DNA of 64,000 nt, taken from contig CALCCB010000083.1 of the NCBI GenBank assembly GCA_937899625.1, forward strand, positions 463-64,462, given 5' to 3'. A program made the translations under genes and the position numbers. Every line of letters starts with the position of its first letter. The first letter of the stretch is position 1. Source of the DNA: an uncultured Bacteroidota bacterium (GTDB lineage Bacteria; Bacteroidota; Bacteroidia; Flavobacteriales_D; Crocinitomicaceae). Below are positions 34,075 through 55,094 of the stretch, piece by piece. The notes below the pieces were generated by a model that saw only the letters and a program-made list of their open reading frames with translations, was not told the origin of the DNA and ran no database searches.

Positions 34075-37000
34075 GTGAATATGCCGCTTTTTCTTCGGAC
34101 TGCAATATTAATTCCATTCCTTTTCATAGGGGTGATCGGTTATGGTCAGCATTCCGTGAACAGAGAAAAGCTTATTCCCTCAAACCAATCCGTGCGGATC
34201 GATACCCTCAGTATTTATCCCAATTCTTTTCAACTTTATTGCGGACCTGATATATTGGATAAATCGCACTACGAGCTCGATCATGCCTCATCCACCATTC
34301 ACGTTCATTTTGACTGCTCAGATTCTTTGATCGCGCAATACCAAGTTTTGCCGATGGACCTGTCAAAAGTTTATGCGGTTCGTGATACTTCCATCCTTTA
34401 TCAGAGTTATAAAGGAGATCGTGAAAAGTTCCTGATCACCAATAATTATGAGATCAATGATGTCTTCGGTGGTAGCTCCTTGAATAAATCAGGAAGTATC
34501 TCAAGAGGGATCAGCTTCGGAAACAATCAGGACCTGGGGATCAACTCATCCCTGAACCTGGAGCTTTCGGGAGAGATAAGTCCAAATTTAAAGATCCTTG
34601 CCTCATTGTCAGATGATAATTTGCCGATTCAACCCGATGGCAACACAGCGAAACTTCAGGAATTCGATCAGATCTATATTCAGATCTATAACGACCGTTT
34701 AAAGCTGGTGGCTGGTGATTTCTGGTTATACAAGCCAAAAGGCTATTTCATGAGCTATAAGAAAAGAGCACAAGGATTAAGTACCGAATATCAATGGTTA
34801 TCCGATACTGTTCGAACGTTCAAAACTCAGGTTAGCGGGGCCATTTCTAAAGGAAAATTCAATCGACAGATCATTCAGGGAATTGAAGGTAATCAGGGAC
34901 CCTACCGTTTGAAGGGCGCAGAAAATGAACCATTCATCACCATCCTTGCCGGAACGGAGCGCGTATACATTGATGGTCGTTTGCTTGATAGAGGACAGGA
35001 ATACGATTATGTGATCAACTACAATTCGTCTGAACTTGTCTTTACATCAAGGAACATGATCACGAAGGATTCCAGAATCGTTGTTGAATTTCAATATTCT
35101 GACCTGAATTATGCCCGTTCATTAATTCAGACATCCAATGTATATACCTCTAAAAAACTTGATGCCTGGATCAATATTTACTCAGAACAGGATGCTAAAA
35201 ATCAAACCATTCAGCAGGAATTGACCTCAGATCAGAAATTACTGCTGTCATCCATCGGTGACAGTCTTGAGCTCGCACGAACAAACAGCATTGATTCTGT
35301 AGGATGGTTTGAGAATCAGATCATGTACAGAATAGTAGACACTTTGGGATACGATTCTGTTCTTGTTTTTTCAGTTAATCCGGATATCGCTTATTACCGT
35401 GCTGTTTTCACCTACGTAGGAGCGAACAAAGGGGATTATATCCTGGAACAATACTCTGCTCTTGGAAAGGTATACAAATGGATCGAACCTGTGGCAGGAA
35501 TACCTCAAGGTGATTACGAACCATCAAGGCTCATCATTGCTCCGAAACAAAAACAAATGGTTTCAACGGGAGTCACCTACCGCTTCAATAAAAACCTACG
35601 GATCGAAAATGAAGTTGCCATTACAAACAATGACCTGAATACATTTTCCAATTTAGACAACAGCGATGATCAGGGTCTTTCGAACAGATTCAAGCTTACA
35701 GGTATTATTCCGTTATCACGAGACAGTATGTCGTCATGGAACCTTGAAACCAGTCTGGAATCAGAGTTCCTGAGCAGGAATTTCAGTACAATTGAGCAAT
35801 ACAGAACAGTTGAGTTTGATCGAGACTGGAATACCAGAAACAAAGGTTTTACCGGAGATCAGCTGAGCACCATTCTGGGAGCCAATTTCAAGCATCGAGA
35901 ATATGGTAATTTCAATCTGCAGGGACAACAATATGCCATCGGAAATGATTACGAAGGCTACAGGGGCGCAACGGATGGAAGTTGGAATCACAAAGGAGTA
36001 AAAGCCATTTGGGATGGTTCCTATTTGCGATCGGAGAGCAACGGGGCCAATGAATATGTGCGTCACCGTGCTGACATTTCAAAAGATCTGAAATGGTTCA
36101 GAATAGGGTACAAAGATGATCATGAATTGAACAGTTTCAGAGATACTTCAGGAAGCTTATCGACGACCAGCTATCAGTTCTTTGATTATCAATTTTACCT
36201 TCAGAATGGGGATAGTTTAAAGAATGGTTTTAAACTCTTCTACCGCGAACGATATGATGATCTTTCAAACGGACAAGCACTTTCCCGATCAGCAAAAGGA
36301 ACCACTGCCGGCGGAGAGATCCAGTTCAAAGAGCTAAGAAATCAAAACCTAACCATTCTTTCCAGCTATCGACAATTAAAAGTTCTGGATACCACTTTGA
36401 TGAAAATTGCACCGGAAAATACGTTGTTGGGTCGAGTTGAACATGATCTGAAAGTTTGGAAAGGTGCGCTGAGCATGAATACCTTCTACGAAGCAGGCTC
36501 AGGACTTGAACAGAAAAGGGAATTCCTCTATATCCAGGTAAATGACGGACAAGGTATCTATACCTGGATCGATTACAACGGTGACGGAGTAAAAGATCTG
36601 AATGAATTCGAGATTGCTCAGTTTGTTGACCAGGCAAGCTATATCCGGGTATTTACACCAAGTAGTGAATACACAAAAACGTATTCAAATGAATTAAACT
36701 ATTCCATTTACTGGCGACCTGAACGCATCTGGTCAAATAAAAAAGGAATCTTGAAATTTGCTTCACGCTTTTCAGATCAAGCCAGATTCAGGATACAGCG
36801 TAAAACAAGCGAATCCAATGAGGGAGATTCGTTCAATCCTTTCTCGTCGAACATCAGGGATACCAGCTTAATCTCAACTTCATCAAATATCAGAAACAGT
36901 ATCTTTTTCAATAGAACCTCATCCATCTTCAATGCGGAATACAACTATCAGGATTCCAAAAGCAAGACGCTCTTAGCCACAGGATTTGACTCAAGAGCAA

Positions 37001-37524
37001 CAACCTCACATGAATTGTTCTTTCGATTCAACATCAAGCGAAAATATTCGATCGAGACAAAAGGATTGAGCGGAGTGAAGATCAGCAATGCTGATTACAC
37101 TTCCGGCCGAAACTATGAAATCCAGTTCGTTTCCATACAAAAGAGTTTCATCTATCAGCCCAATACTGTTTTCAGAATTACACTTGATACCAAATATTCA
37201 GAGAAACGAAACGAGGAAACCCTCGGCAATGAATCTGCATTCCTAAGTGAACTAGGCAGTACCTTCAAGTACAATCAATCCGAAAAAGGAAGTTTCCAGG
37301 GGGGTATGAAATATGTGAAGATCAACTTTAACGGAAACTTTAATTCTGCGATCGGATTTGAAATGCTTGAAGCACTTCGACCGGGAAACAATATAACCTG
37401 GAATTTATCCTATCAACGATCTGTTTCAAGAAATTTACAGTTATCCATTCAATACCTTGGAAGAAGCTCAGAAACTTCACGCACCATTCACTCAGGAGGA
37501 ATGGAGTTAAGAGCGTTCTTCTGA
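34075..37524 (+). CDS. large (1149 aa) secreted protein, putative outer-membrane beta-barrel, function unknown
   Basis: It has a signal-like N-terminus (FLRTAILIPFLFIGVIGYGQ). Composition is alternating and rich in beta-strand residues (N/S/Y/G/T) throughout. The aromatic C-terminus ...GGMELRAFF resembles an OMP beta-signal. Confidence 0.6.
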   Translation: MNMPLFLRTAILIPFLFIGVIGYGQHSVNREKLIPSNQSVRIDTLSIYPNSFQLYCGPDILDKSHYELDHASSTIHVHFDCSDSLIAQYQVLPMDLSKVYAVRDTSILYQSYKGDREKFLITNNYEINDVFGGSSLNKSGSISRGISFGNNQDLGINSSLNLELSGEISPNLKILASLSDDNLPIQPDGNTAKLQEFDQIYIQIYNDRLKLVAGDFWLYKPKGYFMSYKKRAQGLSTEYQWLSDTVRTFKTQVSGAISKGKFNRQIIQGIEGNQGPYRLKGAENEPFITILAGTERVYIDGRLLDRGQEYDYVINYNSSELVFTSRNMITKDSRIVVEFQYSDLNYARSLIQTSNVYTSKKLDAWINIYSEQDAKNQTIQQELTSDQKLLLSSIGDSLELARTNSIDSVGWFENQIMYRIVDTLGYDSVLVFSVNPDIAYYRAVFTYVGANKGDYILEQYSALGKVYKWIEPVAGIPQGDYEPSRLIIAPKQKQMVSTGVTYRFNKNLRIENEVAITNNDLNTFSNLDNSDDQGLSNRFKLTGIIPLSRDSMSSWNLETSLESEFLSRNFSTIEQYRTVEFDRDWNTRNKGFTGDQLSTILGANFKHREYGNFNLQGQQYAIGNDYEGYRGATDGSWNHKGVKAIWDGSYLRSESNGANEYVRHRADISKDLKWFRIGYKDDHELNSFRDTSGSLSTTSYQFFDYQFYLQNGDSLKNGFKLFYRERYDDLSNGQALSRSAKGTTAGGEIQFKELRNQNLTILSSYRQLKVLDTTLMKIAPENTLLGRVEHDLKVWKGALSMNTFYEAGSGLEQKREFLYIQVNDGQGIYTWIDYNGDGVKDLNEFEIAQFVDQASYIRVFTPSSEYTKTYSNELNYSIYWRPERIWSNKKGILKFASRFSDQARFRIQRKTSESNEGDSFNPFSSNIRDTSLISTSSNIRNSIFFNRTSSIFNAEYNYQDSKSKTLLATGFDSRATTSHELFFRFNIKRKYSIETKGLSGVKISNADYTSGRNYEIQFVSIQKSFIYQPNTVFRITLDTKYSEKRNEETLGNESAFLSELGSTFKYNQSEKGSFQGGMKYVKINFNGNFNSAIGFEMLEALRPGNNITWNLSYQRSVSRNLQLSIQYLGRSSETSRTIHSGGMELRAFF

Positions 37525-43651: not shown

Positions 43652-45070
43652 ATGAAAAAAACAAAAATAGTAGCAACGCTTGGGCCTGCATCGACTGACA
43701 AAGACACCTTGAGAGAAATGTTCCTTGCGGGATTAAATGTTTGTCGTTTAAATTTCTCGCACGGTGCCTATGAGGATCATCAGGCAGCAATTGAAACTAT
43801 CCGCGAGCTCAATGAAGAAACAGGGTTGAATGTTGCAATACTTGCTGACCTTCAAGGACCAAAGATCAGAACCGATCTTATGACTGATAATGGAATTGAA
43901 TTGGTTACTGGAAAAGAAGTTGAAATTGTTACTGAAAAAGTGCTTGGAACCGCAGAACGCTTCTCCATCAATTATTCAAAATTACCACAAGACGTTCAGG
44001 CAGGGGAAAGAATTCTACTGGATGATGGGAAAATTGCTTTGGATATTGTTAGTACAAATGGCAAGGATCTCATCAGAGCAAGGGTGGCACATGGCGGAAT
44101 CCTTTCTTCTAAAAAAGGAGTGAATTTCCCGAACACAAAAATATCTATGCCTTCTCTAACTCCGAAGGATCTGGAAGACTTGAATTTTGCATTGGATCAG
44201 AATGTTGACTGGATCGGTCTTTCATTCGTACGTTCAGCAAGAGACATCATTGAACTTCGTCATATTATTGCTTCCAAAAAATGCAAGGCCAAGGTTATCG
44301 CCAAGATCGAGAAACCCGAAGCGATTGAAGAAATCGATGAGATCATCAAAGAAAGTGACGGACTTATGGTAGCAAGAGGGGATCTTGGTGTAGAAGTTCC
44401 CTACCAGAACGTACCACTAATCCAAAAAATGTTGATCAATAAGTGTATCCTAAATGCCAAACCGATCATTGTGGCTACACAGATGATGGAAAGCATGATC
44501 TCTAATATCACTCCGACGAGAGCAGAAGTGAATGACGTTGCAAATGCGGTGCTGGACGGTGCTGATGCAGTAATGCTTTCAGGTGAAACTTCTGTTGGTA
44601 AGTTCCCTGTTCAGGTCATTAAAACCATGAGCAATATCGTACATGAAATGGAGAACTTTGAAGGTATCTACAACAAAGAAGAGATCCCGGAAAAAAATCA
44701 AAACCGATTCATCACCGATTCCATCTGTTTCAACGCATGTCGTTTATCTCAAAGGGTTCAGTCTGATGCGATCATTACCATGACCTTTTCAGGATATACT
44801 GCCTATAAGATTGCATCCCAACGTCCGAAAGCTCCGATCTTCGTGTTTACAAGTAACCGTCAGATCTTAACCCAATTAAATCTTGTTTGGGGAGTAAGAG
44901 CATTCTACTACGATAAAAGAGTGAGTACCGATCACACTATCGCCGATATTAAATACCTTCTTAAGAAGGATGGCTTACTGAAATCAGGTGACCTGGTGAT
45001 CAATATTGCCTCAATTCCATTAGAGGATCTTGGAAATTCGAACATGCTTAAACTTAGTTATGTAGACTAG
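43652..45070 (+). CDS. pyk: pyruvate kinase
   Basis: 472 aa with motifs KTKIVATLGPAS, NFSHG, AKIEKPEA, MVARGDLGVE and MLSGETS. Confidence 0.95.
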   Translation: MKKTKIVATLGPASTDKDTLREMFLAGLNVCRLNFSHGAYEDHQAAIETIRELNEETGLNVAILADLQGPKIRTDLMTDNGIELVTGKEVEIVTEKVLGTAERFSINYSKLPQDVQAGERILLDDGKIALDIVSTNGKDLIRARVAHGGILSSKKGVNFPNTKISMPSLTPKDLEDLNFALDQNVDWIGLSFVRSARDIIELRHIIASKKCKAKVIAKIEKPEAIEEIDEIIKESDGLMVARGDLGVEVPYQNVPLIQKMLINKCILNAKPIIVATQMMESMISNITPTRAEVNDVANAVLDGADAVMLSGETSVGKFPVQVIKTMSNIVHEMENFEGIYNKEEIPEKNQNRFITDSICFNACRLSQRVQSDAIITMTFSGYTAYKIASQRPKAPIFVFTSNRQILTQLNLVWGVRAFYYDKRVSTDHTIADIKYLLKKDGLLKSGDLVINIASIPLEDLGNSNMLKLSYVD

Positions 45071-46272
45071 TGAAGACACTCGTTCAACTGATATCATTTC
45101 TTCTTCTATCAGGTTCGATATTAGCTTGTAATGTTGATGTTGTGATCAATGAAGGGACGAGTATCACCATTTGTCAGGGTTCAGGAACAACTATCAATGC
45201 ATCGGCAGGATATGTCAGCTACAGTTGGTCAGGACCATCGACAGGAACTTCTGCTTCACTAACACCGACTCAATCGGGAACATATACCGTGGATGCAGAG
45301 GATGCTTTAGGTTGTATTTCTTCAGCAAGTATCTCTGTAACGATTGCTCTGAATCCAACTCCAACGTTGATCTCCTCTGAAGGAAATGTGATCTGTAACG
45401 GTCTGTCAACTGCAATTTCAACCATCCAGGGCTATAATAGCTACTTGTGGTCTACGGGAAGTACTCAAGCTTTGATCACTGTGAATCAAGGAGGCGTATA
45501 TACTGTCGAAGTAGTCGATGCAAACGGATGTCTGGGAAATGCCGCAATCCTGATCAATGAACCCAATTTTTCTTTAACGACCATCACCACAACGGTTTGC
45601 CTTGGTGGAACAGCATTACTCACTGCAGGCGGAGGGGGAACTTACTCTTGGTCTACTGGAGAAACAGGAAGTAGTATTGTTGTAGGACCGACCCAAAATA
45701 CGACTTATTCAGTAACGATAACCAACGGATCCTGCACTGAAACACTTGATCAATTGATCTATGTGCAACAGATTCCATCAGCTTCAATTCAGGATACATT
45801 CTATGTACAACCCGGTGTTTCAATAGCGATCTCGGGGCCAGAAGGCTACGATGAATATTCGTGGTTTCCGTACGACAACTTATCCGCCATCAATATACAG
45901 AACACCAGTTTTTCAGGGAATCAATCTACTACTTATGCCGTAGTTTCAAGTCTGTCAGAAGGATGTCAACGGATCGATTCAATCTGGGTATTTGTCATCG
46001 ATCTTATCATACCAACAGGTTTTTCACCAAATGGTGATCAAACGAATGATCGATTTGTTATCCCTGAACTTGAATTTTATTCGGGTGACATCATAATCTG
46101 GAATCGATGGGGAGATAAAGTTTTTGAAAGTGACAATTATCAGAACAACTGGGATGGCACATGTAAAGAACCACTCTGTCTAACACAAGGCACATTACCT
46201 GAAGGCACATATTATTATCAGATTACAGTGAAGGACTTGGTGTATAATGGTTTTACAACTTTAAAGCGATAA
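45070..46272 (+). CDS. T9SS type-B sorting-domain cargo protein with four tandem Ig-like repeats
   Basis: 400 aa. The GTG start shares one base with the pyk stop (TAGTG). After a signal peptide come four repeats of about 70 aa. The C-terminal domain reads IPTGFSPNGDQTNDRFVIP...WNRWGDKVFESDNYQNNWDG...LPEGTYYYQI...GFTTLKR. Confidence 0.8.
   Translation: MKTLVQLISFLLLSGSILACNVDVVINEGTSITICQGSGTTINASAGYVSYSWSGPSTGTSASLTPTQSGTYTVDAEDALGCISSASISVTIALNPTPTLISSEGNVICNGLSTAISTIQGYNSYLWSTGSTQALITVNQGGVYTVEVVDANGCLGNAAILINEPNFSLTTITTTVCLGGTALLTAGGGGTYSWSTGETGSSIVVGPTQNTTYSVTITNGSCTETLDQLIYVQQIPSASIQDTFYVQPGVSIAISGPEGYDEYSWFPYDNLSAINIQNTSFSGNQSTTYAVVSSLSEGCQRIDSIWVFVIDLIIPTGFSPNGDQTNDRFVIPELEFYSGDIIIWNRWGDKVFESDNYQNNWDGTCKEPLCLTQGTLPEGTYYYQITVKDLVYNGFTTLKR
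45127..45996 (+). repeat. four tandem coding repeats of about 70 aa inside the cargo gene
   Basis: Repeat units span roughly aa 20-92, 93-164, 165-232 and 233-309. Each has (I/V)C.G...(Y.SY.WSTG)...(G.YTV.V.D..GC): ICQGSG..YSWSGP..GTYTVDAEDALGC; ICNGLS..YLWSTG..GVYTVEVVDANGC; VCLGGT..YSWSTG..TTYSVTITNGSC; the fourth is degenerate. Confidence 0.7.
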
Positions 46273-46273
46273 T

Positions 46274-47251
46274 ATGAGGACTCTGATCATCACTTCTTTT
46301 ATTTCGCTGTTGTCTACGTTAATTCTTGGACAAAATACAATCCGATTCTCGAATTTCAATTTCACGAAATCCATCTATAATCCTTCAGCTGTAGCGACGG
46401 ATGCTCAAGTGAGTGCAGACCTGGTTTATCGTACCCAATGGGTTGGACTTGAAGGAGCACCGACAACGATTGGATTCAATGGGGGTTACGAGATCAATGA
46501 GCTTATGGCCGTTGGTATCAACTTCTACAACGATAGGATAGGATTAAATCAAACAAATTCGATCTCGGCCATGTATGCTTATCGCTTGTTATTTGATGAT
46601 AAACAATATCTGAGCTTTGGTTTAGGTGTTGGAGTTGACAATATTGCCTGGAATCTGAACGAGGCAACTACCATTCAACCAAATGATGCCGCATTTTCGA
46701 CTGGGTATTCAACTTGGGCATTCAATTCATCCGTTGGATTGTATTATAAAACCAAAAAATTCTATGCTGGAATTTCTGTTCCTCAGATGTTTCAGAATAC
46801 GCTATTCGGACAAGACAAAGGAATGAAACTCATTCGATTCCATTACCATGCTTTGGCAGGTTACTATTTTTCAGTGAGTGAACGATTTGTTTTTCATCCT
46901 TCGTTACAACTGAAGTATACCTGGAATGCACCGATCCAGGAAGATGTGATCCTGAGAGGAATTTGGTCTGACTTAGGTTTTTCATTAGGATATCGATCCC
47001 AAAATTCATTGATCGCCGGATTTGATTATACGTTCAGCCAGAAGATTCGTGTTGGATACATGGCAAACTACGATCTTGGTCCTTTTGCAAGGTCAAAGGG
47101 ATGGTCGCACGAAGTATACTTGGGCTTGGGATTACCTTATTACAATTCCAATGTTGGAATTGACGGTCGTCTTTACGTGAATAAGAAAGGTGGATACAAG
47201 ACCAACTACAGAAGATCGGCACGCAGAAAACAGTCAAAAAGACCCTACTAA
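46274..47251 (+). CDS. PorP/SprF-family type IX secretion system membrane protein
   Basis: 325 aa with a signal peptide, then IRFSNFNFTKSIYNPSA...YRTQWVGLEGAPTT. It starts 1 nt after the cargo gene. Confidence 0.8.
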   Translation: MRTLIITSFISLLSTLILGQNTIRFSNFNFTKSIYNPSAVATDAQVSADLVYRTQWVGLEGAPTTIGFNGGYEINELMAVGINFYNDRIGLNQTNSISAMYAYRLLFDDKQYLSFGLGVGVDNIAWNLNEATTIQPNDAAFSTGYSTWAFNSSVGLYYKTKKFYAGISVPQMFQNTLFGQDKGMKLIRFHYHALAGYYFSVSERFVFHPSLQLKYTWNAPIQEDVILRGIWSDLGFSLGYRSQNSLIAGFDYTFSQKIRVGYMANYDLGPFARSKGWSHEVYLGLGLPYYNSNVGIDGRLYVNKKGGYKTNYRRSARRKQSKRPY

Positions 47252-47381: not shown

Positions 47382-50237
47382 ATGAGCGTATTTTCTCAAC
47401 GTCACATTGGACCAAATCAGACAGAAAAGGCCGCAATGTTAGCAAAAGCGGGAGTCTCATCTATTGATGAACTAATCGACAAAACGATCCCAGCACACAT
47501 TCGTTTGAACAGAGAACTTGTTATTGATAATGCTTTATCAGAACAAGAGTATTTAAATCATATTCAGGAGCTGGGTAAAAAAAATAAGGTCTTTCGTTCA
47601 TTCATCGGAATGGGGTATAACGAAACCATTGTACCTTCAGTTATTCTGAGAAATGTTCTTGAAAATCCGGGATGGTATACAGCTTATACTCCTTATCAAG
47701 CTGAGATCTCTCAGGGAAGATTAGAGGCATTGTTGAATTTTCAGACGATGATCCTTGAGCTGACTGGCCTTGAAATCGCTAATGCATCTCTTCTTGATGA
47801 AGGAACTGCGGCTGCTGAAGCCATGATCATGTTCTGGAATTCACGTTCAAGAAATGATGTGAAGGAAGGGAAAAACAAATTCTTTATTTCAGATTCATGT
47901 TTTCCTCAAACCATTGATGTTGTTGTAGGTAGAGCAAAGAATCTCGGAATTGATCTAGTGATCGGAGATGCTCAATCTTTCCAGCCAGGAAATGAGTTTT
48001 TTGGAGCTTTGATCCAGTATCCTGATGCCAGAGGAGTTGTCACTGATCTGAAGCCTTTCATTTCAAGAATGAAAGAATCAGGAGTTCAGGTTGCCGTTGC
48101 AGCGGATATCCTTTCACTTGTGATCCTTAATTCACCTGGATCTATGGGGGCGGATGTTGTTTTCGGAACTTCTCAGCGCTTCGGTGTACCGATGGGCTAT
48201 GGTGGACCGCATGCAGCTTAATTCGCCGCGAGGGATGAATACAAGAGAACAATGCCGGGTAGAATCATCGGAGTCTCTAAAGATGCTGATGACAATCTTG
48301 CTTTGAGAATGGCTCTTCAAACAAGAGAGCAGCACATTAAAAGAGATAAAGCAACATCAAATATTTGTACTGCTCAGGCATTGTTAGCCGTTATGGCAAG
48401 TATGTACGCAGTATATCATGGTCCGACAGGAATGAGAGATATCGCTTTGCATTGTCATTCACTTGCTTCAAAATTGGCGGATGGATTAAAAGCACTTGAC
48501 ATTGAAGTTGCATCAGACAATTACTTTGATACAGTTTGGGTAAAAGGGGTTCAATGCTCAGCGATTCAGTCTTATGCTGAGGAATTAGAGATGAACTTTA
48601 ATTACATCAATGACAGTGAATTGACGATCAGCTTTGGAGAGCCACACACGACAGCAGACGTTGAAAATATCCTGGAGATCTTCGCGAAAATTGATGGAAA
48701 AGAAGCTACTGAGGTCACACATGAATTACATGCGAATCTAGTTGGAGCATTTTTAAGAACGGATGGTGTCTTGACCCACGCAACTTTTAACAGCTATCAT
48801 TCTGAATCAAAAATGATGCGTTACCTGAAGCGTTTGGAGAATAAAGATCTTTCATTGGTACACAGCATGATCCCACTTGGGTCATGTACCATGAAATTAA
48901 ATGCGGCAAGTGAGTTGATTCCAATCACGAATCCACAATTCGCCAATATGCATCCATTCGCACCGATCAATCAGGCAGAAGGATATCATGAAATGTTCCG
49001 TCAATTGGAGAAAGACCTTTGCGAATGCACCGGCTTTGCTGCCATGTCCTTACAACCTAACTCAGGTGCACAAGGAGAGTACGCGGGGTTGATGGTAATC
49101 AAAGCGTATCATGAATCCAGAGGTGATTTCCAACGAACTAAGATGATCATTCCTTCTTCAGCTCACGGTACGAATCCAGCATCTGCAGTGATGGCGGGGA
49201 TGGAAGTGGTTGTTACAGGATGTGATGAGAATGGAAACATTAACATCGATGAATTAAGACAAGTAGCCAATGAGCTAAAAGATACACTTGCTGGATTGAT
49301 GGTGACTTATCCATCTACTCACGGTGTTTATGAAGAAGGTATTCGTGAGATCACTTCGATCATCCATGAAAATGGGGGACAAGTATACATGGATGGTGCA
49401 AATATGAATGCTCAGGTAGGATTAACTAATCCTGGAAACATTGGAGCTGATGTTTGTCACCTGAACCTTCACAAAACATTTGCGATCCCTCATGGTGGTG
49501 GTGGACCTGGAATGGGGCCAATCGGAGTTGGTGCTCACCTTGCTCCTTTCCTACCCGGAAATCCTTTGGTAAAAGCAGGAGGAGATCAGGCAATCCATGC
49601 GGTTTCTGCCGCACCTTATGGTTCTGCTTTGATCCTTTTGATCTCTTATGGATACATCAAGATGCTTGGGGCAAAAGGATTACGTCATTCAACTGAAATT
49701 GCAATCTTGAATGCCAACTACATTGCAGCTTCTTTGAAAGGTCATTATGATGTACTGTATGCAGGTAAGAATGGAACAGTTGCTCACGAAATGATCCTTG
49801 ACTGCCGTGAATTCAAGAAAACAGCTGACGTTGAAGTTGCAGATATCGCGAAGCGTTTGATCGATTTCGGATTCCATGCTCCTACTGTTTCTTTCCCAGT
49901 TGCAGGTACTTTGATGATTGAACCAACCGAATCAGAAGATAAGGAAGAGCTGGACAGATTCATTGAAGCAATGATCAAGATCAGAACTGAGATCAGAGAG
50001 ATCGAAAATGGACATGCAGACAAAGAGAATAATTTGTTGAAAAATGCCCCACATACTGCAGATTGTATCATCAATAAAAACTGGAACTATCCGTATTCAC
50101 CTCAAGAAGCAGCCTACCCTGTTTCCTATTTGAAAGATTTCAAATACTGGGTACCGGTTCGAAGAGTGGACAATGCTTATGGTGATCGTAACTTAGTATG
50201 TGCATGCCCTAGTATTGAAAGCTACATGATGAGCTAA
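47382..50237 (+). pseudogene. gcvP: glycine dehydrogenase (aminomethyl-transferring) GcvP, single-chain type, interrupted by one in-frame TAA at 48219-48221
   Basis: ORFs 47382-48221 and 48252-50237 are in the same frame. Reading through gives ...[33 protein letters not shown]..., which is continuous with the conserved GcvP core. The PLP region is [18 protein letters not shown]. The total is about 950 codons, as in single-chain GcvP. Confidence 0.85.
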
Positions 50238-50261
50238 TTCTCATTATCATATAAAAATGAA

Positions 50262-50285
50262 AGCCTGTAAATACAGGCTTTTTTA
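50262..50285 (+). terminator. Rho-independent terminator after gcvP (may also act on the minus strand)
   Basis: agcctgt (50262-50268) / acaggct (50273-50279), followed by a T-run through 50284. Confidence 0.8.
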
Positions 50286-50339: not shown

Positions 50340-50753
50340 TTAGTCGTTCACTTCTTTTTTAATTTTTAATATGAATGGCTCTATTTTTTCTACCAATCTT
50401 TTTTCTACCCATGGTTTTTCAATAAACTCAGTGAGCAAACCTGTTTCAATTAACTCACTGACTACAATGCTATTTGACTGACCAGAAAGCATAAAACAAA
50501 CCAATTCAGGATATTTTGATTTAATCTTTTTTATGAGGGTTGCTCCATTCATTTCAGGCATTTGATAATCAACAATCAAGAACAAAATGTCGACACCATA
50601 ACTCATTAACTCCTGAATGCATCCTTCAACTTCCATTGGATTAGTCAACGTCTCTATCAAAGTGGTAGACGGTGAAAAATACTTTTTTAATTGGTATGAA
50701 AGTACATCAACAATTGTACGATCATCATCAACACAGACAATAGCGTATTTCAT
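50340..50753 (-). CDS. single-domain (CheY-like) response regulator receiver protein
   Basis: 137 aa with VCVDDD, LFLIVDYQMPEMNG (phospho-acceptor Asp), MLSG and EKPW. It has no output domain and starts 2 nt after the kinase stop. Confidence 0.9.
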   Translation of the reverse strand: MKYAIVCVDDDRTIVDVLSYQLKKYFSPSTTLIETLTNPMEVEGCIQELMSYGVDILFLIVDYQMPEMNGATLIKKIKSKYPELVCFMLSGQSNSIVVSELIETGLLTEFIEKPWVEKRLVEKIEPFILKIKKEVND

Positions 50754-50755
50754 AA

Positions 50756-53700
50756 TTATCTAAATGGAAATTTAAATGTAAAAGTAGTTAAATCATCTGT
50801 AGAAATTACCTCAACCGCAGCATGATGTTCATCTAGGATTTCTTTTACAATGTTCAGACCTATTCCAGCACCTGATTTTTCTTTTTTTGTTGAAACAAAA
50901 CGGCTAAAAATATTGGGCAATACATCCTCAGGGATTTTAGGGCCATCATTTGAAATACTAATTTTGGCAAAACCATCTTCTTTGGTTAATCTAATCTGAA
51001 TGATACCTTTATGATCCATTGCGTCTATTCCGTTCTTTATTATATTCGACCATACCTGATATAGTTTCGCTTGAAATGCCATAATGACAATATCATTTTC
51101 GCCTTCATATTCGATCAGCACCCCTCTTTTTATCTCATATTGGAATATTTTAATTACGGTTTGAATTGATTGCTCAAGATTCACTTCCTCCTTAACTATA
51201 CTTTCGTCACCATCTCTTAAATAAAATCTTAAATTTCGGATTACTTCGGCCGCCCTGTTGACTGATAGTAAAATTGAATCATTGAAAGATCTCATTAAAA
51301 GAATTGAATACATTAAGTTAATATAAGGCAATGGATCTTCAATTTGAATGAATTCTTCGAGGTAATCAATATCGCTTATTTCTATTCTGGCATTAATTAG
51401 AGCGTTAATGATTTCATCAGATTTTAATGGTGCATATCGCTGATGATTAGAAATAAAATCATTCCATGTTTTTATTTCTTTTAAACGTTGTATCCCACCG
51501 ACATTAACACTGAAATCACCCTCTCTTTTGTATGCTTTCTTAATTTGATCACTTGAACATTGCAGTAATGATGAAACAAATAACTGTTCAACAGTTGAGT
51601 TAACTTGCTCTGCAGATGCTCTAATCGCCCCAATAGGTGTATTCAATTCATGAGTGATGTTTGCGGTCAACTCTCCTATCATGGCAGCTTTATCCAAATT
51701 GGAGAGCATTATTGTTAATTCCTGATTTTTGGCTGTTTGCTCAGCTATCTTGATTTCAAGGTTTTGATTCATTTTTGAAATGACCTCATTTTGATGATTA
51801 ATTTCATTCAAATAATTCACCGATGAAAACCCATTTCCAATAATTTGAGAAAATAATTCGAGTAACAAGGATTCTTTATCAGAGGGTTTTTTATATTCCT
51901 CAATAAAATCAATACCAACAAAACCTTGACAGACTTTACCTGACATGCAAGGATACGTGTAAAAAGATTTAATATTTATATTTAGGAGCTTGTCTTTATA
52001 CTCTCCATCAGGCAACTCACTGATGTTTTCCACATTGAATGGCTTCCCATCAAGATGCGTTAGTAATCTCTTCTTTGGTAAAACATTCATTGATACAATC
52101 CGAGAATTTTTTTGAACTTCATCATTTAATACCCATTCACTTTCAAGAATCATTTTTTCCTCATCAAAGTCGTAAGAATAAAAATAAGCTCGATCTGCCC
52201 CCATGAACTTGCCTATTTTACTGAGATTAGATCTAACTTTTTTGTTGAAGTCTTTTGGACCTACACCGACGAAGGATGATGCAACTTCTGAAAGTAGTTC
52301 CAAGAAAGATAGCTGAGTTGTTAACTCATTTTGAATGGCCTTTAAAGAAGTGATATCAACTCCATAACCGATGATATATTCCAACTTATTTTTTGTGCCT
52401 ATAATAGGCTCAAATGTTCTTTGAGTAATAATCTTAACCCCTTCTTGACTAATATGCTCATCCTCCCATTGTGCAAATGTTTTTCTCTTTTTTACTTTAT
52501 TAAAATTTTGACGTCTAAGTAATGCCGGAGTATTTGGAATTCCTTTCAGTTGATAATAATCAAAGTCTGTTTTACCGATAATCCAATTTCTGATTTCATC
52601 ATTTTTGATCCCTTTTTGGTTAACATAGATATATTCATGTTGTAAATTAAACACTGCGATATCCAAGGGGAATCCATCCAGAATACTTTCGTAAAAATTT
52701 TTTAATTTATTATTATTTTCTATGAATTCTGTGATTTCAGATGCATAAAGATTCACATAGTTTTTATCTACTATATTGGCAAGATCAATATTGTAAAATC
52801 GAGAGTTTCTCTCTAGTGTTAAGAAAGAATTTTGCCCATTTGATTGCACTAATTCATTAATCGCTGCCAAAAATTCAACGTCATTAATTTTACCCTCAAT
52901 AACAGAAAAATCTTTTAGAAAAGATTCTTGACTCGCTTTATTGAAATAAATGATTTCCTGATTTTCATTCAAACGAAGTATTGGATTCGGATTTTCATTC
53001 GGGAAACGTGCAATCACTTCTATTTCATCTCTAACCAGCTTTAATTCCTTGTTTTTTTGGACAAGATTTTTTTGTATTCTTTTTGAATCCGAGAGAGAGC
53101 TATCAGTTGTTTGCTTGAGAAAAATATATTCAATTATGTAATCGAGAGGAGAAAAATCAGAAATTTGAAGATTATAATTCTCTATTGGAAATTCATTGTT
53201 CAATACAGGCGAGCAAACTAAAAACTTAAAATCGTTTTTTGTAAAAACCGAGACTTTAAATTTGACTTTCAAGTTTTTGCCTAGGATAAATATCAATTTG
53301 TTCTTATAACTTTGAATAAAGTTATTTAGGTCACCGCTTAAAAATCTGTCATCCCAATCAAAATGGTAGTCGAAATGATCGTATAGATTGAGGGTGGGTA
53401 TTATTTTTTTAAAGCCCTCGCTGTATTTTAATAGTTGAAATTGTTCATTAAAAAGCAGAATAAATGGATTCGTTTTCCGCATCGTTTCATATTCTGATAA
53501 TATACTGATCAGATTTCCAGATGACTCAATTTTTAAATCAACTAATGCAGTTGAACTCTTTACTAAAGTAGATATTCCTGTTTTTTCAAACTTGGTTAAT
53601 TCTTGAACAGAATCTGAAAAAATATAAAATGTAAGAACAAATTCATTCCTGGACGAAAGAAGAGAACACTTGATGATAGAATTACATCCCGCTTTACTGA

Positions 53701-53983
53701 ATAATTGAGGTAAGTTTGTCGATGAGATTTCACATTCATCTGCTTTTTTAAAATTGCAATTTTTTAATTCATCGCTAATTTTTTGAGTTCTATTATTCGT
53801 AATAGATGCCAATTCAAAATTAGAAATGATTCTACGATCATTGTTTAATTCAATTTCAATACATGCTGAGAATCCATTGGTTAATTTTGAAGCCATATAG
53901 GCCATATCATCTAGCTCTGACAAAATTTCAGAATCATCAAATAATATGTCTAATGAGTAATCTTGATTATTCACCCAACTCAA
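50756..53983 (-). CDS. cytoplasmic multidomain sensor histidine kinase (N-terminal unknown region, HNOBA-like segment, 2 PAS, GAF, DHp, HATPase_c)
   Basis: 1075 aa with no TM segment seen. PAS-like regions are FPNENPNPILRLNENQEIIYFN and YESILDGFPLDIAVFN.... The GAF-like region is about aa 560-725. The H-box is ELTANITHELNTPIGAI (His778, codon 51650-51652). The N-box is WSNIIKNGIDAM, and the G-boxes are NDGPKI and GAGIGLNIV. Confidence 0.85.
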   Translation of the reverse strand: MSWVNNQDYSLDILFDDSEILSELDDMAYMASKLTNGFSACIEIELNNDRRIISNFELASITNNRTQKISDELKNCNFKKADECEISSTNLPQLFSKAGCNSIIKCSLLSSRNEFVLTFYIFSDSVQELTKFEKTGISTLVKSSTALVDLKIESSGNLISILSEYETMRKTNPFILLFNEQFQLLKYSEGFKKIIPTLNLYDHFDYHFDWDDRFLSGDLNNFIQSYKNKLIFILGKNLKVKFKVSVFTKNDFKFLVCSPVLNNEFPIENYNLQISDFSPLDYIIEYIFLKQTTDSSLSDSKRIQKNLVQKNKELKLVRDEIEVIARFPNENPNPILRLNENQEIIYFNKASQESFLKDFSVIEGKINDVEFLAAINELVQSNGQNSFLTLERNSRFYNIDLANIVDKNYVNLYASEITEFIENNNKLKNFYESILDGFPLDIAVFNLQHEYIYVNQKGIKNDEIRNWIIGKTDFDYYQLKGIPNTPALLRRQNFNKVKKRKTFAQWEDEHISQEGVKIITQRTFEPIIGTKNKLEYIIGYGVDITSLKAIQNELTTQLSFLELLSEVASSFVGVGPKDFNKKVRSNLSKIGKFMGADRAYFYSYDFDEEKMILESEWVLNDEVQKNSRIVSMNVLPKKRLLTHLDGKPFNVENISELPDGEYKDKLLNINIKSFYTYPCMSGKVCQGFVGIDFIEEYKKPSDKESLLLELFSQIIGNGFSSVNYLNEINHQNEVISKMNQNLEIKIAEQTAKNQELTIMLSNLDKAAMIGELTANITHELNTPIGAIRASAEQVNSTVEQLFVSSLLQCSSDQIKKAYKREGDFSVNVGGIQRLKEIKTWNDFISNHQRYAPLKSDEIINALINARIEISDIDYLEEFIQIEDPLPYINLMYSILLMRSFNDSILLSVNRAAEVIRNLRFYLRDGDESIVKEEVNLEQSIQTVIKIFQYEIKRGVLIEYEGENDIVIMAFQAKLYQVWSNIIKNGIDAMDHKGIIQIRLTKEDGFAKISISNDGPKIPEDVLPNIFSRFVSTKKEKSGAGIGLNIVKEILDEHHAAVEVISTDDLTTFTFKFPFR

Positions 53984-54000
53984 AATTCAATCGTTTTAAT

Positions 54001-54543
54001 TTACCACTTGACAAGAAACACATGGCTATCTTCTGGTAAATCACCTCTGTCTATTTCAACCATAGTTGTTTCAATATTGAATCTTTTTCCAAGCCCCCTT
54101 ACTAAACCAAACAACATTGGCGTTAACCCTTTTCTATGTGATGTGTAAATTAGCTCTAATGAATTTTCAGCTTTATTACGAACCTGAAACTTTGGTGCCT
54201 GAAGATGTGGCATAATATTGTTCATTCTGTAATGAAGCATGTCCAAGTTTTCCAAGAAATCAACAAAGTTGCTTCCTGTTATATTCATAAGGTCATTGTA
54301 TCCTTCATCTGCTGTATATAAGATCCAGTATTCACCAAAAGCATCTAAAACTACAGAGGCGTCTGCTTTTAAAACGATTGAGGCATTCTTTACAAGAGTA
54401 TATGTCAATTCATCTGGATATGAATCCATTGCAACAAAATCTCCTTCATCAAAATCACTCAAATCACAGATTACTTCCCATTTATCTTCCCCAAACTTTT
54501 CAGTCACTAAATCTTTGATTGCTTTATTTACTAAACCGTACAT
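54001..54543 (-). CDS. H-NOX (heme nitric oxide/oxygen-binding, HNOB) domain protein
   Basis: 180 aa. The N-terminus is MYGLVNKAIKDLV..FGEDKWE. The proximal His is in FLENLDMLHYRM (His104). The YxSxR motif is in LIYTSHRKGL (Y133, S135, R137). From memory these align with sGC beta1 MYGFVNHAL / FLQNLDALHDHL / HYYSEREGL. Confidence 0.85.
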   Translation of the reverse strand: MYGLVNKAIKDLVTEKFGEDKWEVICDLSDFDEGDFVAMDSYPDELTYTLVKNASIVLKADASVVLDAFGEYWILYTADEGYNDLMNITGSNFVDFLENLDMLHYRMNNIMPHLQAPKFQVRNKAENSLELIYTSHRKGLTPMLFGLVRGLGKRFNIETTMVEIDRGDLPEDSHVFLVKW

Positions 54544-54611: not shown

Positions 54612-55094
54612 ATGACGAATAAAGAATTTTTCAAAACAATACTTTCTACGGAATTAAAGGCAACGGCAGATATAATTGCTTCAATACCGAATGATCAAAT
54701 GGGTTATAGGCCGCATGAAAGAAGTAGAAGCGCATACGAGATTGCAGAACATATTATTGCCCATGCTTATGACTTTTCGGTAATCTTAGAGAATGATAAA
54801 TGTGACGAATGTCTTGTTTATCCATTTTCAAGTGCTGAAGAGGGTTCCGCAAAACTGACAAAGCTTTGGAACGATGCGATAGGTAAGTTGGATACATATG
54901 ATGAGAATAAATGGTCGAATGAGATGGTAGAACTTTTGGTAGAGGGTAACGTTTTTGGAAGTATGCCCAGAACCAATATGATGTGGTTCTTCCTTTTCGA
55001 TATTATTCATCATAGAGGTCAATTGTCTTCGTACATTAGACCAATGGGAGGTAAGAATCCTGCAGTATACGGTTACTCCGCTGATACTATTTAA
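54612..55094 (+). CDS. DinB-family protein
   Basis: 160 aa with four-helix-bundle-type motifs (IAEHIIAH ... FDIIHHRGQLSSY). Confidence 0.8.
   Translation: MTNKEFFKTILSTELKATADIIASIPNDQMGYRPHERSRSAYEIAEHIIAHAYDFSVILENDKCDECLVYPFSSAEEGSAKLTKLWNDAIGKLDTYDENKWSNEMVELLVEGNVFGSMPRTNMMWFFLFDIIHHRGQLSSYIRPMGGKNPAVYGYSADTI

Follow-up and report, generated by a model that had tools for sequence, protein, structure and literature searches.

A Bacteroidota H-NOX protein, HNOBA histidine kinase and receiver-only regulator as a probable nitric oxide-responsive two-component system

Introduction

Does a compact operon of an uncultured Crocinitomicaceae bacterium encode a gas-sensing signalling system and, if so, of which kind? 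The question is raised by three genes at positions 50340-54543 of a 64-kb stretch of contig CALCCB010000083.1 (the window; all positions given here refer to it in whole). They encode an H-NOX protein, a large histidine kinase and a response regulator that consists of a receiver alone. Characterised H-NOX proteins regulate adjacent kinases or cyclic di-GMP (c-di-GMP) enzymes, and the characterised pathways are all proteobacterial, with c-di-GMP, transcriptional or LuxU outputs (PMC8738867). Bacteroidota are listed among the phyla with H-NOX genes (PMC9510103), and a study of an H-NOX pathway of theirs was not found in the literature that we searched. A preliminary description, read from the letters of the window, had put the locus forward as an undescribed signalling system. 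The locus, we find, belongs to a known type, the two-component system of H-NOX and an HNOBA-bearing kinase, of which it is an uncharacterised variant in Bacteroidota. The earlier claim stands as far as the system is uncharacterised in Bacteroidota; it does not stand as a new kind, with H-NOX relatives in at least 532 genomes and a like trio already noted in Legionella. The three proteins probably form a nitric oxide (NO)-responsive two-component phosphorelay in which sensor and kinase are separate proteins.

Results

A three-gene operon

Open reading frame (ORF) coordinates and direct reading of the sequence bear out the arrangement first described, with three genes on the minus strand separated by 17 and 2 nucleotides. 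The parts of the operon, in the order of transcription, are as follows.

54001-54543, minus strand: H-NOX gene, 180 amino acids, ATG start (ORF call)
53984-54000, minus strand: spacer of 17 nucleotides, from the H-NOX stop to the TTG of the kinase (sequence reading)
50756-53983, minus strand: gene of a cytoplasmic multi-sensor histidine kinase, 1075 amino acids, TTG start (ORF call)
50754-50755, minus strand: spacer of 2 nucleotides, kinase to receiver gene (sequence reading)
50340-50753, minus strand: receiver-only response regulator gene, 137 amino acids (ORF call)

The kinase has an alternative start, a GTG three codons downstream, which gives the product of 1072 amino acids called by JGI.

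The H-NOX sensor

The first gene had been described as encoding a stand-alone H-NOX protein on the strength of the motifs LDMLHYRM and IYTSHRKGL. Both motifs are present in the 180-residue product, which matches Pfam HNOB (PF07700) with the significance that the identification called for: E-value 1.4e-45 and 155.6 bits (cut-off 25.5), with residues 2-161 on positions 1-161 of the 163 in the profile. The closest solved relative is Alr2278 of Nostoc sp. PCC 7120 (Ns H-NOX), which aligns end to end at 3e-45, and the beta1 subunit of soluble guanylate cyclase (sGC) is matched at 2e-26. Several further solved H-NOX proteins match much less closely, in the range of 2.5e-8 to 1e-5 (6BDE and 6BDD at about 1e-7 to 1e-8, Tt H-NOX at about 1e-5).

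The residues expected to hold the haem fall where they had been predicted. His104, within LDMLHYRM, aligns with the proximal haem ligand His105 of Alr2278, and Y133, S135 and R137, the YxSxR of IYTSHRKGL, align with its haem propionate ligands Y134, S136 and R138. These four residues, together with Met143, Pro117 and Trp73, are invariant in 33 H-NOX relatives (58-74% identity). Given the invariant proximal His and YxSxR, haem binding is therefore expected. The distal pocket has Met143 and Trp73, and the distal Tyr is absent; Met143 aligns with Met144 of Ns H-NOX and Ile145 of sGC, a position that we take to be that of the distal Tyr140 in the O2-binding Tt H-NOX. Absence of the distal Tyr marks the NO-selective class of H-NOX proteins.

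The same three proteins might nevertheless answer to something other than NO, be it carbon monoxide (CO), O2, the redox state of the haem or haem availability, with the kinase responding to redox or oxidative stress. Ns-type H-NOX binds CO too, which is a point in favour of such a signal. Genes of NO metabolism were not found in the 64-kb window, and a DinB-like gene is the divergent neighbour of H-NOX in seven related loci. Some H-NOX proteins sense oxidants haem-free, and other clades are without the proximal His (PMC8738867). These points are set against an invariant proximal His and YxSxR, with which haem is expected to be bound, and against a Met143/Trp73 pocket that is free of Tyr, as in the NO-selective class of Ns H-NOX and sGC. 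Vibrio H-NOX has a Cys/zinc redox site (PMC8738867); the protein described here has a single Cys, C26, and such a site therefore cannot form. A signal other than NO thus appears to us decidedly improbable, and NO, perhaps along with CO, is the ligand that we carry forward.

An HNOBA domain in the kinase

The preliminary description had portrayed the second protein as a kinase of 1075 residues with no transmembrane segment and at least five sensory modules. Its cytoplasmic, multi-sensor nature is confirmed: no transmembrane segment was found in the kinase (the highest 19-residue Kyte-Doolittle mean is 1.2), and five modules are seen in an AlphaFold model (20-sequence alignment, pLDDT 74.5) and backed by GAF, HNOBA and PAS_4 matches in homologues. 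What had been overlooked is the HNOBA coupling domain at residues ~172-326. The sensory part of the kinase is laid out as follows.

53594-53956, minus strand: degenerate GAF-like domain, residues ~10-130 (AlphaFold, block pLDDT mostly 67-89)
Residues 131-171: long helix after the N-terminal GAF (AlphaFold)
53006-53470, minus strand: HNOBA/H-NOXA domain, residues ~172-326, with a PAS-like part (172-260) and a signalling helix (279-326) (profiles, AlphaFold)
52724-52996, minus strand: PAS-like domain, residues ~330-420, opening with FPxENPNPI (AlphaFold; weak PAS_4 match at 332-366)
52355-52705, minus strand: PAS domain of the PAS_4 type, residues ~427-543 (AlphaFold, pLDDT 83-92)
51905-52249, minus strand: second GAF domain, residues ~579-693 (AlphaFold)

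In sGC, H-NOXA is the PAS domain placed after H-NOX and before the coiled coil, and bacterial homologues have it as well (PMC2904703, PMC2828450). In the kinase, the Pfam HNOBA match is itself faint (E-value 0.013, 15.4 bits), a word-indexed homologue search with residues 1-330 returned no match, the query itself included, and a single-sequence search of the PDB with the HNOBA region returned none. When residues 1-330 were searched exhaustively with phmmer, against 1.84 billion representatives, 104 relatives were returned. With the exception of the two closest, these match only from about residue 90 on, most over ~165-325 and often at their own N-termini, and a significant Pfam HNOBA match is present in 56/59 and 19/42 of the relatives scanned (best E-value 4.5e-35). 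A profile built of 30 HNOBA segments matched in the PDB the H-NOXA domain of a Nostoc punctiforme kinase (2P08/2P04) at 2.6e-12, and the PAS plus coiled coil of human sGC at 1.2e-5 (alpha1) and 2.2e-5 (beta1). Hybrid HNOBA-REC-Hpt kinases (e.g. P0182) were considered as relatives and set aside, as they have no adjoining H-NOX gene and only one PAS region matches.

Structure comparison points the same way. Residues 1-335 were modelled separately with AlphaFold (pLDDT 76.8), and the top Foldseek matches of this model were chains of sGC: 9P2R_B and 6JT0_B at 5e-6, and 6JT2_A over 165 columns with a root-mean-square deviation (rmsd) of 4.2 Å. Among the other matches were 2P08, with a TM-score on the target of 0.78, 2P04 (0.77, rmsd 2.2 Å) and the PAS domain of Manduca sGC, 4GJ4 (0.68). 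The full-length model had returned generic PAS, GAF, kinase and phytochrome matches and was uninformative next to the N-terminal one. To judge by the family profiles and the predicted fold, residues ~172-326 are a divergent HNOBA/H-NOXA domain, a PAS plus signalling-helix module, which is predicted to serve as the docking and transduction site for H-NOX. With this domain in the kinase, the two genes would thus recreate on two polypeptides the H-NOX/PAS/helix sensor half of sGC.

The remaining modules are drawn largely from homologues. The Pfam matches of the window kinase itself are HATPase_c (2e-20), a partial HisKA, the weak PAS_4 (332-366) and the sub-threshold HNOBA (236-313). Full-length homologues (32-34% identity) have significant matches to GAF (30-153), HNOBA (257-332), PAS_4 (452-565), a second GAF, HisKA and HATPase_c. 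At the N-terminal GAF, where the window copy has no Pfam match, the homologues aligned there match Pfam GAF at 2.8e-20, and GAF and phytochrome structures are among the Foldseek matches of the residue 1-335 model. F327, P328, E330, N331, P332 and P334, at the start of the first PAS-like domain, are nearly invariant. The PAS domain at 427-543 is the most conserved of the sensory modules, with many invariant columns within 430-545 and homologues that match PAS_4 in the aligned position (3.7e-7 and 7.2e-8). As for the second GAF, homologues have two Pfam GAF stretches, and the segment recurs in the kinases of related loci.

Kinase core and its insert

C-terminal to the sensory modules lies a histidine kinase core whose dimerisation and histidine phosphotransfer (DHp) hairpin is interrupted by an insert.

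51572-51880, minus strand: coiled-coil linker and first DHp helix, residues ~702-804 (H-box ITHELNTP)
51650-51652, minus strand: codon of the phospho-acceptor His778 (H-box motif)
51332-51571, minus strand: four-helix insert in the DHp hairpin, residues ~805-884 (AlphaFold)
50759-51331, minus strand: second DHp helix (885-923) and ATP-binding domain (932-1075) (HATPase_c, AlphaFold)

All boxes of a HisKA-type kinase are present: besides the H-box there are the N-box WSNIIKNGIDA (N980/N984), G1 NDGPKI, the F-box IFSRF and G2 GAGIGL. H778, L780, N781, T782 and P783 are invariant, and the ATPase domain matches kinases in the PDB, e.g. 3A0R at 5.5e-16. The spacing is not that of a canonical two-helix DHp. 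The Pfam HisKA match covers only profile positions 3-29 of 66, and the H-box His and N-box Asn are 201-205 residues apart in 52 HNOBA kinases and 13 non-HNOBA kinases of related loci. In canonical HisKA kinases such as EnvZ and HK853 this distance is about 105-115 residues.

The insert, of ~80-90 residues, is modelled by AlphaFold as helices at 811-819, 830-845, 852-864 and 872-880, and it has conserved residues at C809, R820, G829-G830, E836 and R866. When the window kinase and its homologues were scanned, no Pfam family covered it. Nor did any solved structure match it significantly; profile hits were confined to the H-box helix and the adjoining segment of canonical kinases. Each insert-bearing kinase of the related loci is paired with a receiver-only gene, which suggests that the insert kinase and its receiver are a Bacteroidota module to which HNOBA and H-NOX were added.

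Many Crocinitomicaceae loci have a second kinase with the DHp insert a few kb downstream, with GAF and no HNOBA, followed by a receiver-only gene of its own (L011, 7265-10715; L012, 13823-17277; L014, 16903-20359; L029, 15603-19465). In L008, L024 and probably L050, the second kinase lies between the HNOBA kinase and the receiver.

The receiver and the question of output

The third protein had been described as a receiver of 137 residues with no output domain, and it is CheY-like in length and residues. It matches Pfam Response_reg at 4.3e-14 and has a complete active site of D10/D11, the phospho-acceptor D62, S90 and K113. The best NCBIfam match is to NosR-family c-di-GMP phosphodiesterases (1.7e-16), over their receiver part only, and in the PDB the protein is closest to the receiver of a REC-HD protein, 2RJN (2.4e-10). 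The protein therefore resembles the receivers of HD-GYP regulators but is without an HD-GYP domain and ends after the receiver fold. Having no output domain, it is expected to act via protein binding or as a phosphate sink.

A partner for this receiver was sought in the surroundings, where the preliminary description had seen no effector, Hpt protein or c-di-GMP enzyme. The 64-kb window holds no Hpt, EAL, GGDEF, HD-GYP or other effector, no DNA-binding partner is linked to the trio, and among 80 related loci there is no conserved neighbour with Hpt, GGDEF, EAL, HD-GYP or DNA-binding functions. Components of the c-di-GMP and quorum-sensing routes (HnoB/HnoD, HaCE, LuxU) are likewise absent from the window, and none is conserved in those 80.

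Conservation across Bacteroidota

How widely is the trio kept together? With each GTDB species represented by one genome, a scan gave at least 532 genomes that encode a relative of the H-NOX. The loci surveyed are the best 80 of these, with labels that are Bacteroidota or clearly Bacteroidota-like, mainly Crocinitomicaceae and Flavobacteriales. Their H-NOX proteins are 56-69% identical to that of the window; as the top value is 69%, the species of the window is not represented in the set. Several relatives (L009, L017, L022, L082 and others) are labelled 'uncultured Akkermansia sp.', 'Chryseobacterium gleum' or 'Chitinophaga pinensis'. These labels look unreliable, the gene content being that of Crocinitomicaceae/Flavobacteriales loci.

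An HNOBA gene directly follows H-NOX in 75 of the 78 loci with at least 300 nucleotides downstream, and the three others have less than 600 nucleotides of sequence each. The gap between the two genes is mostly -10 to +12 nucleotides in these 75. Every complete HNOBA copy is a histidine kinase (61/61): 54 share the core of the window kinase and seven are of other types, counted as kinases after their H-box-like motifs (e.g. SHELRTPL, HHRVKNN, LHDGVNQ) had been read by eye. A receiver-only gene comes directly after 49 of the 54 core-sharing kinases. The receivers so placed are 104-144 residues long, two of them cut by contig ends and the complete ones 127-144, and two receivers stand in tandem in eight loci. 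The kinases range from 509 to 1497 residues, with PAS and GAF modules that vary or are absent and an HNOBA domain that is constant.

Clustering of the ORFs of the 80 loci left only the families of the trio conserved across them (80, 76 and 52 loci). Further clusters, considered as sources of a conserved effector, were clade-specific housekeeping genes (saccharopine dehydrogenase, aldo-keto reductase, pyridine-nucleotide oxidoreductase, glycosyltransferase), and no effector was retained. The three genes are thus found together in relatives, in the pairs and followers counted above. Their order recurs in dozens of Bacteroidota species and is not a matter of chance.

The survey bears on a further possibility, in which H-NOX is a minor modulator, ligands of the PAS and GAF modules drive the kinase, the receiver acts as sink or feedback and the real output regulator lies elsewhere in the genome. 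This is partly compatible with the NO-responsive phosphorelay. In its favour, the kinase has four sensory modules besides HNOBA, and the core with its insert and receiver-only partner also occurs without HNOBA and H-NOX in related loci, so that the kinase-receiver pair is a generic module; the missing output domain and the tandem receivers point in the same direction. However, the adjacency of H-NOX and HNOBA kinase is kept when PAS and GAF vary or are absent, and HNOBA is therefore the constant input. That a receiver-only gene follows nearly all core-sharing kinases also argues against this reading. We regard so subordinate a role for H-NOX as unlikely, and retain the NO-responsive phosphorelay.

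Composition, populations and flanking genes

The operon differs in composition from its surroundings. Its GC content of 0.31-0.35 and GC content at third codon positions (GC3) of 0.26-0.30 are the lowest among 28 window genes measured, the remainder of which have a GC content of 0.37-0.44. Recent lateral transfer was considered as the source and rejected, as the flanking genes are shared with the nearest species (L009); any acquisition is therefore older than the split of these species. Six metagenome contigs (JGI, ENA samples) carry the locus at 99.95-99.995% identity, with no indels and an intact operon. The organism is therefore real and recurrent.

These data also address whether the adjacency of the three genes is incidental, or the locus a decaying remnant of lateral acquisition with no signalling function. 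The low GC and GC3 would fit such a remnant, as would the degenerate N-terminal GAF, the fast evolution of the kinase and an identity between window and nearest species of 69% for H-NOX, as opposed to 88% for gcvP. Yet the three ORFs are intact, their catalytic and ligand residues are conserved, the operon is whole in all six near-identical contigs, synteny with DinB and gcvP is common to the window and the nearest species, and the trio is conserved across the phylum. A remnant is in our judgement hardly credible, and we take the operon to be a functional signalling unit.

Variants in the population cluster at 51784-51939 (kinase residues 682-734), where the window differs from most metagenome contigs at 4-5 positions in ~155 bp. 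In the kinase they include G682V, Y697C and V734L, close to where the second GAF ends, and the receiver has a variant at 50615 (residue 47). Outside these, the 20 kb compared with the metagenome contigs are almost invariant.

The flanking genes are gcvP and a DinB-like gene, as had been reported. One further feature lies in the stretch bounded by the stop codons of the receiver gene and of gcvP, which are convergent.

50259-50282, no strand assigned: hairpin rich in GC, with T-runs on each strand (terminator-like match on either strand)

This hairpin is likely the 3' end of the three-gene operon. A sigma-70 promoter scan gave 19 matches, as against 23.9 in shuffled controls; the model is unsuited to Bacteroidota promoters, and the result was not used.

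The gcvP gene (glycine dehydrogenase, 47382-50237, plus strand) has an A at 48221 in the window, where all six near-identical contigs have C. The change turns TAC (Tyr) into a TAA stop and leaves ORFs of 279 and 661 amino acids; the other contigs encode an intact protein of 951 amino acids. The stop is either an error of sequencing or assembly or a nonsense mutation particular to this strain. The DinB-like gene (54612-55094, plus strand) is divergent from H-NOX at a distance of 68 nucleotides, and is found at the same place in 7 of the 80 related loci (L009, L012, L013, L014, L052, L069 and L084; 60-68% identity). Members of the DinB superfamily include thiol transferases, and a tie of this neighbour to nitrosative or thiol stress is possible.

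Elsewhere in the window are two PorP/SprF genes and a CHU_C-type protein (280-1200 and 45070-47251), components of the type IX secretion system, which fit a Bacteroidota host. One type IX pair lies just past gcvP from the operon, an arrangement common to L009. An ORF of 1149 amino acids (34075-37524, plus strand) has no Pfam match at E <= 1e-5 and adjoins transglutaminase-like and DUF5686 proteins.

Discussion

A proposed mechanism

How would the three proteins work together? In the phosphorelay that we propose, H-NOX would bind ferrous b-type haem through His104, with Y133, S135 and R137 holding the propionates. With no distal Tyr to stabilise O2, the protein would be selective for NO and perhaps CO. 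Its docking on the kinase, a cytoplasmic dimer, would be non-covalent and at the HNOBA module (~172-326), much as H-NOX packs on the PAS domain and coiled coil in sGC. Once NO is bound, the Fe-His bond would be strained or broken and the surface of H-NOX would move, and the signal would run from the signalling helix through both PAS domains, the GAF domain and the coiled coil to the DHp. Autophosphorylation of His778 would be altered, the NO-bound form most likely inhibiting it, by analogy with HnoK and HqsK. The extra GAF and PAS modules may allow other cytoplasmic inputs to be integrated. The phosphoryl group would then pass from His778 to Asp62 of the co-transcribed receiver.

The domain identities, key residues, gene order and conservation to which this proposal appeals are observations. 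Several points weigh against it. Every biochemical step is inferred, from haem and NO binding through docking, the direction of regulation and phosphotransfer to the downstream target. The direction of regulation, in particular, is borrowed from distantly related proteobacterial kinases. In the searchable literature, we found physical contact between H-NOX and HNOBA for no bacterial pair. The kinase HNOBA score of 15.4 bits is below the gathering threshold of 23.4, the assignment resting on family profiles and predicted structure, and the N-terminal GAF of the window copy is degenerate. The window contains no NO-producing or NO-detoxifying gene. Finally, the output is a receiver alone, which leaves the physiological response undefined.

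Relation to known systems

The closest known system is the cyanobacterial pair of H-NOX and HNOBA kinase (Alr2278, PDB 2O09; N. punctiforme 2P04/2P08). The likeness is in the H-NOX, full-length and with identical haem-ligand residues (3e-45 to Alr2278), in the HNOBA domain of the kinase, by profile (2.6e-12) and by fold (TM-score on the target 0.77-0.78), and in the pairing of a stand-alone sensor with a cytoplasmic kinase. In Nostoc, the H-NOX and kinase genes are reportedly adjacent (Iyer et al. 2003; Ma et al. 2008). The present system differs in its phylum, Bacteroidota; in an HNOBA domain that is preceded by GAF and followed by PAS-PAS-GAF; in a DHp with an insert of ~80-90 residues that has no solved counterpart; and in an output that is receiver-only. 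Both cyanobacterial domains have been crystallised, and we found no published pathway biochemistry for the cyanobacterial or the present system.

The sensor half of sGC (6JT0-6JT2, 6PAS, 9P2R) is the next point of reference. H-NOX resembles beta1 (2e-26), and the PAS plus helix resembles alpha1 and beta1 (~1e-5), and in both systems the haem event is likely relayed via PAS and signalling helix. Here, in contrast, there are two polypeptides, a kinase output in place of a cyclase, no alpha/beta heterodimer and additional GAF and PAS modules. The three window proteins have no match to a class III cyclase domain in Pfam, and the system is accordingly not a member of the sGC family.

The proteobacterial pairs, Shewanella HnoX-HnoK, Vibrio H-NOX-HqsK and Pseudoalteromonas H-NOX-HahK, likewise have a stand-alone H-NOX gene beside a cytoplasmic kinase (PMC8738867). 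Their H-NOX class is only distantly related to that of the window, and their kinases are far smaller; short kinases (350-450 amino acids) with an N-terminal HNOBA do occur among the HNOBA relatives, one of them from Arenicella sp. by its source label. In Proteobacteria the output is taken by regulators with EAL or HD-GYP domains, by a transcription factor or by LuxU, whereas here there is a receiver alone. Nearest in logic is the Hnox2 locus of Legionella pneumophila, with lpg2459 (H-NOX), lpg2458 (kinase) and lpg2457 (CheY-like), a trio that we liken to ours by gene types alone (PMC8738867). It belongs to a gammaproteobacterium and is uncharacterised as well (PMC8738867).

Meaning for the Bacteroidota

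What is understood of H-NOX signalling comes almost wholly from Proteobacteria, in which it acts on c-di-GMP or quorum-sensing circuits. The sGC-like and Nostoc-like class of H-NOX is present in abundant Bacteroidota of fresh water and estuaries, and there it is linked to an HNOBA kinase and a receiver-only gene. A more speculative picture may be drawn, in which the trio would be a naturally split sGC sensor with the insert-bearing kinase lineage as its readout; the insert would be a docking platform for the receiver or H-NOX; and the phosphorylated receiver would steer a behaviour specific to Bacteroidota, gliding or attachment to surfaces for instance, and would do so by binding a protein directly and not through c-di-GMP or transcription. 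Taken jointly, these proposals are tentative and somewhat unlikely to hold in every part.

The structure of the kinase core, with its conserved DHp insert, would be worth determining for its own sake. The sensor and kinase offer a bacterial model, made of two proteins, of the step at the heart of sGC activation, the communication of H-NOX with PAS domain and signalling helix, and the operon points to a response to NO in environmental Bacteroidota.

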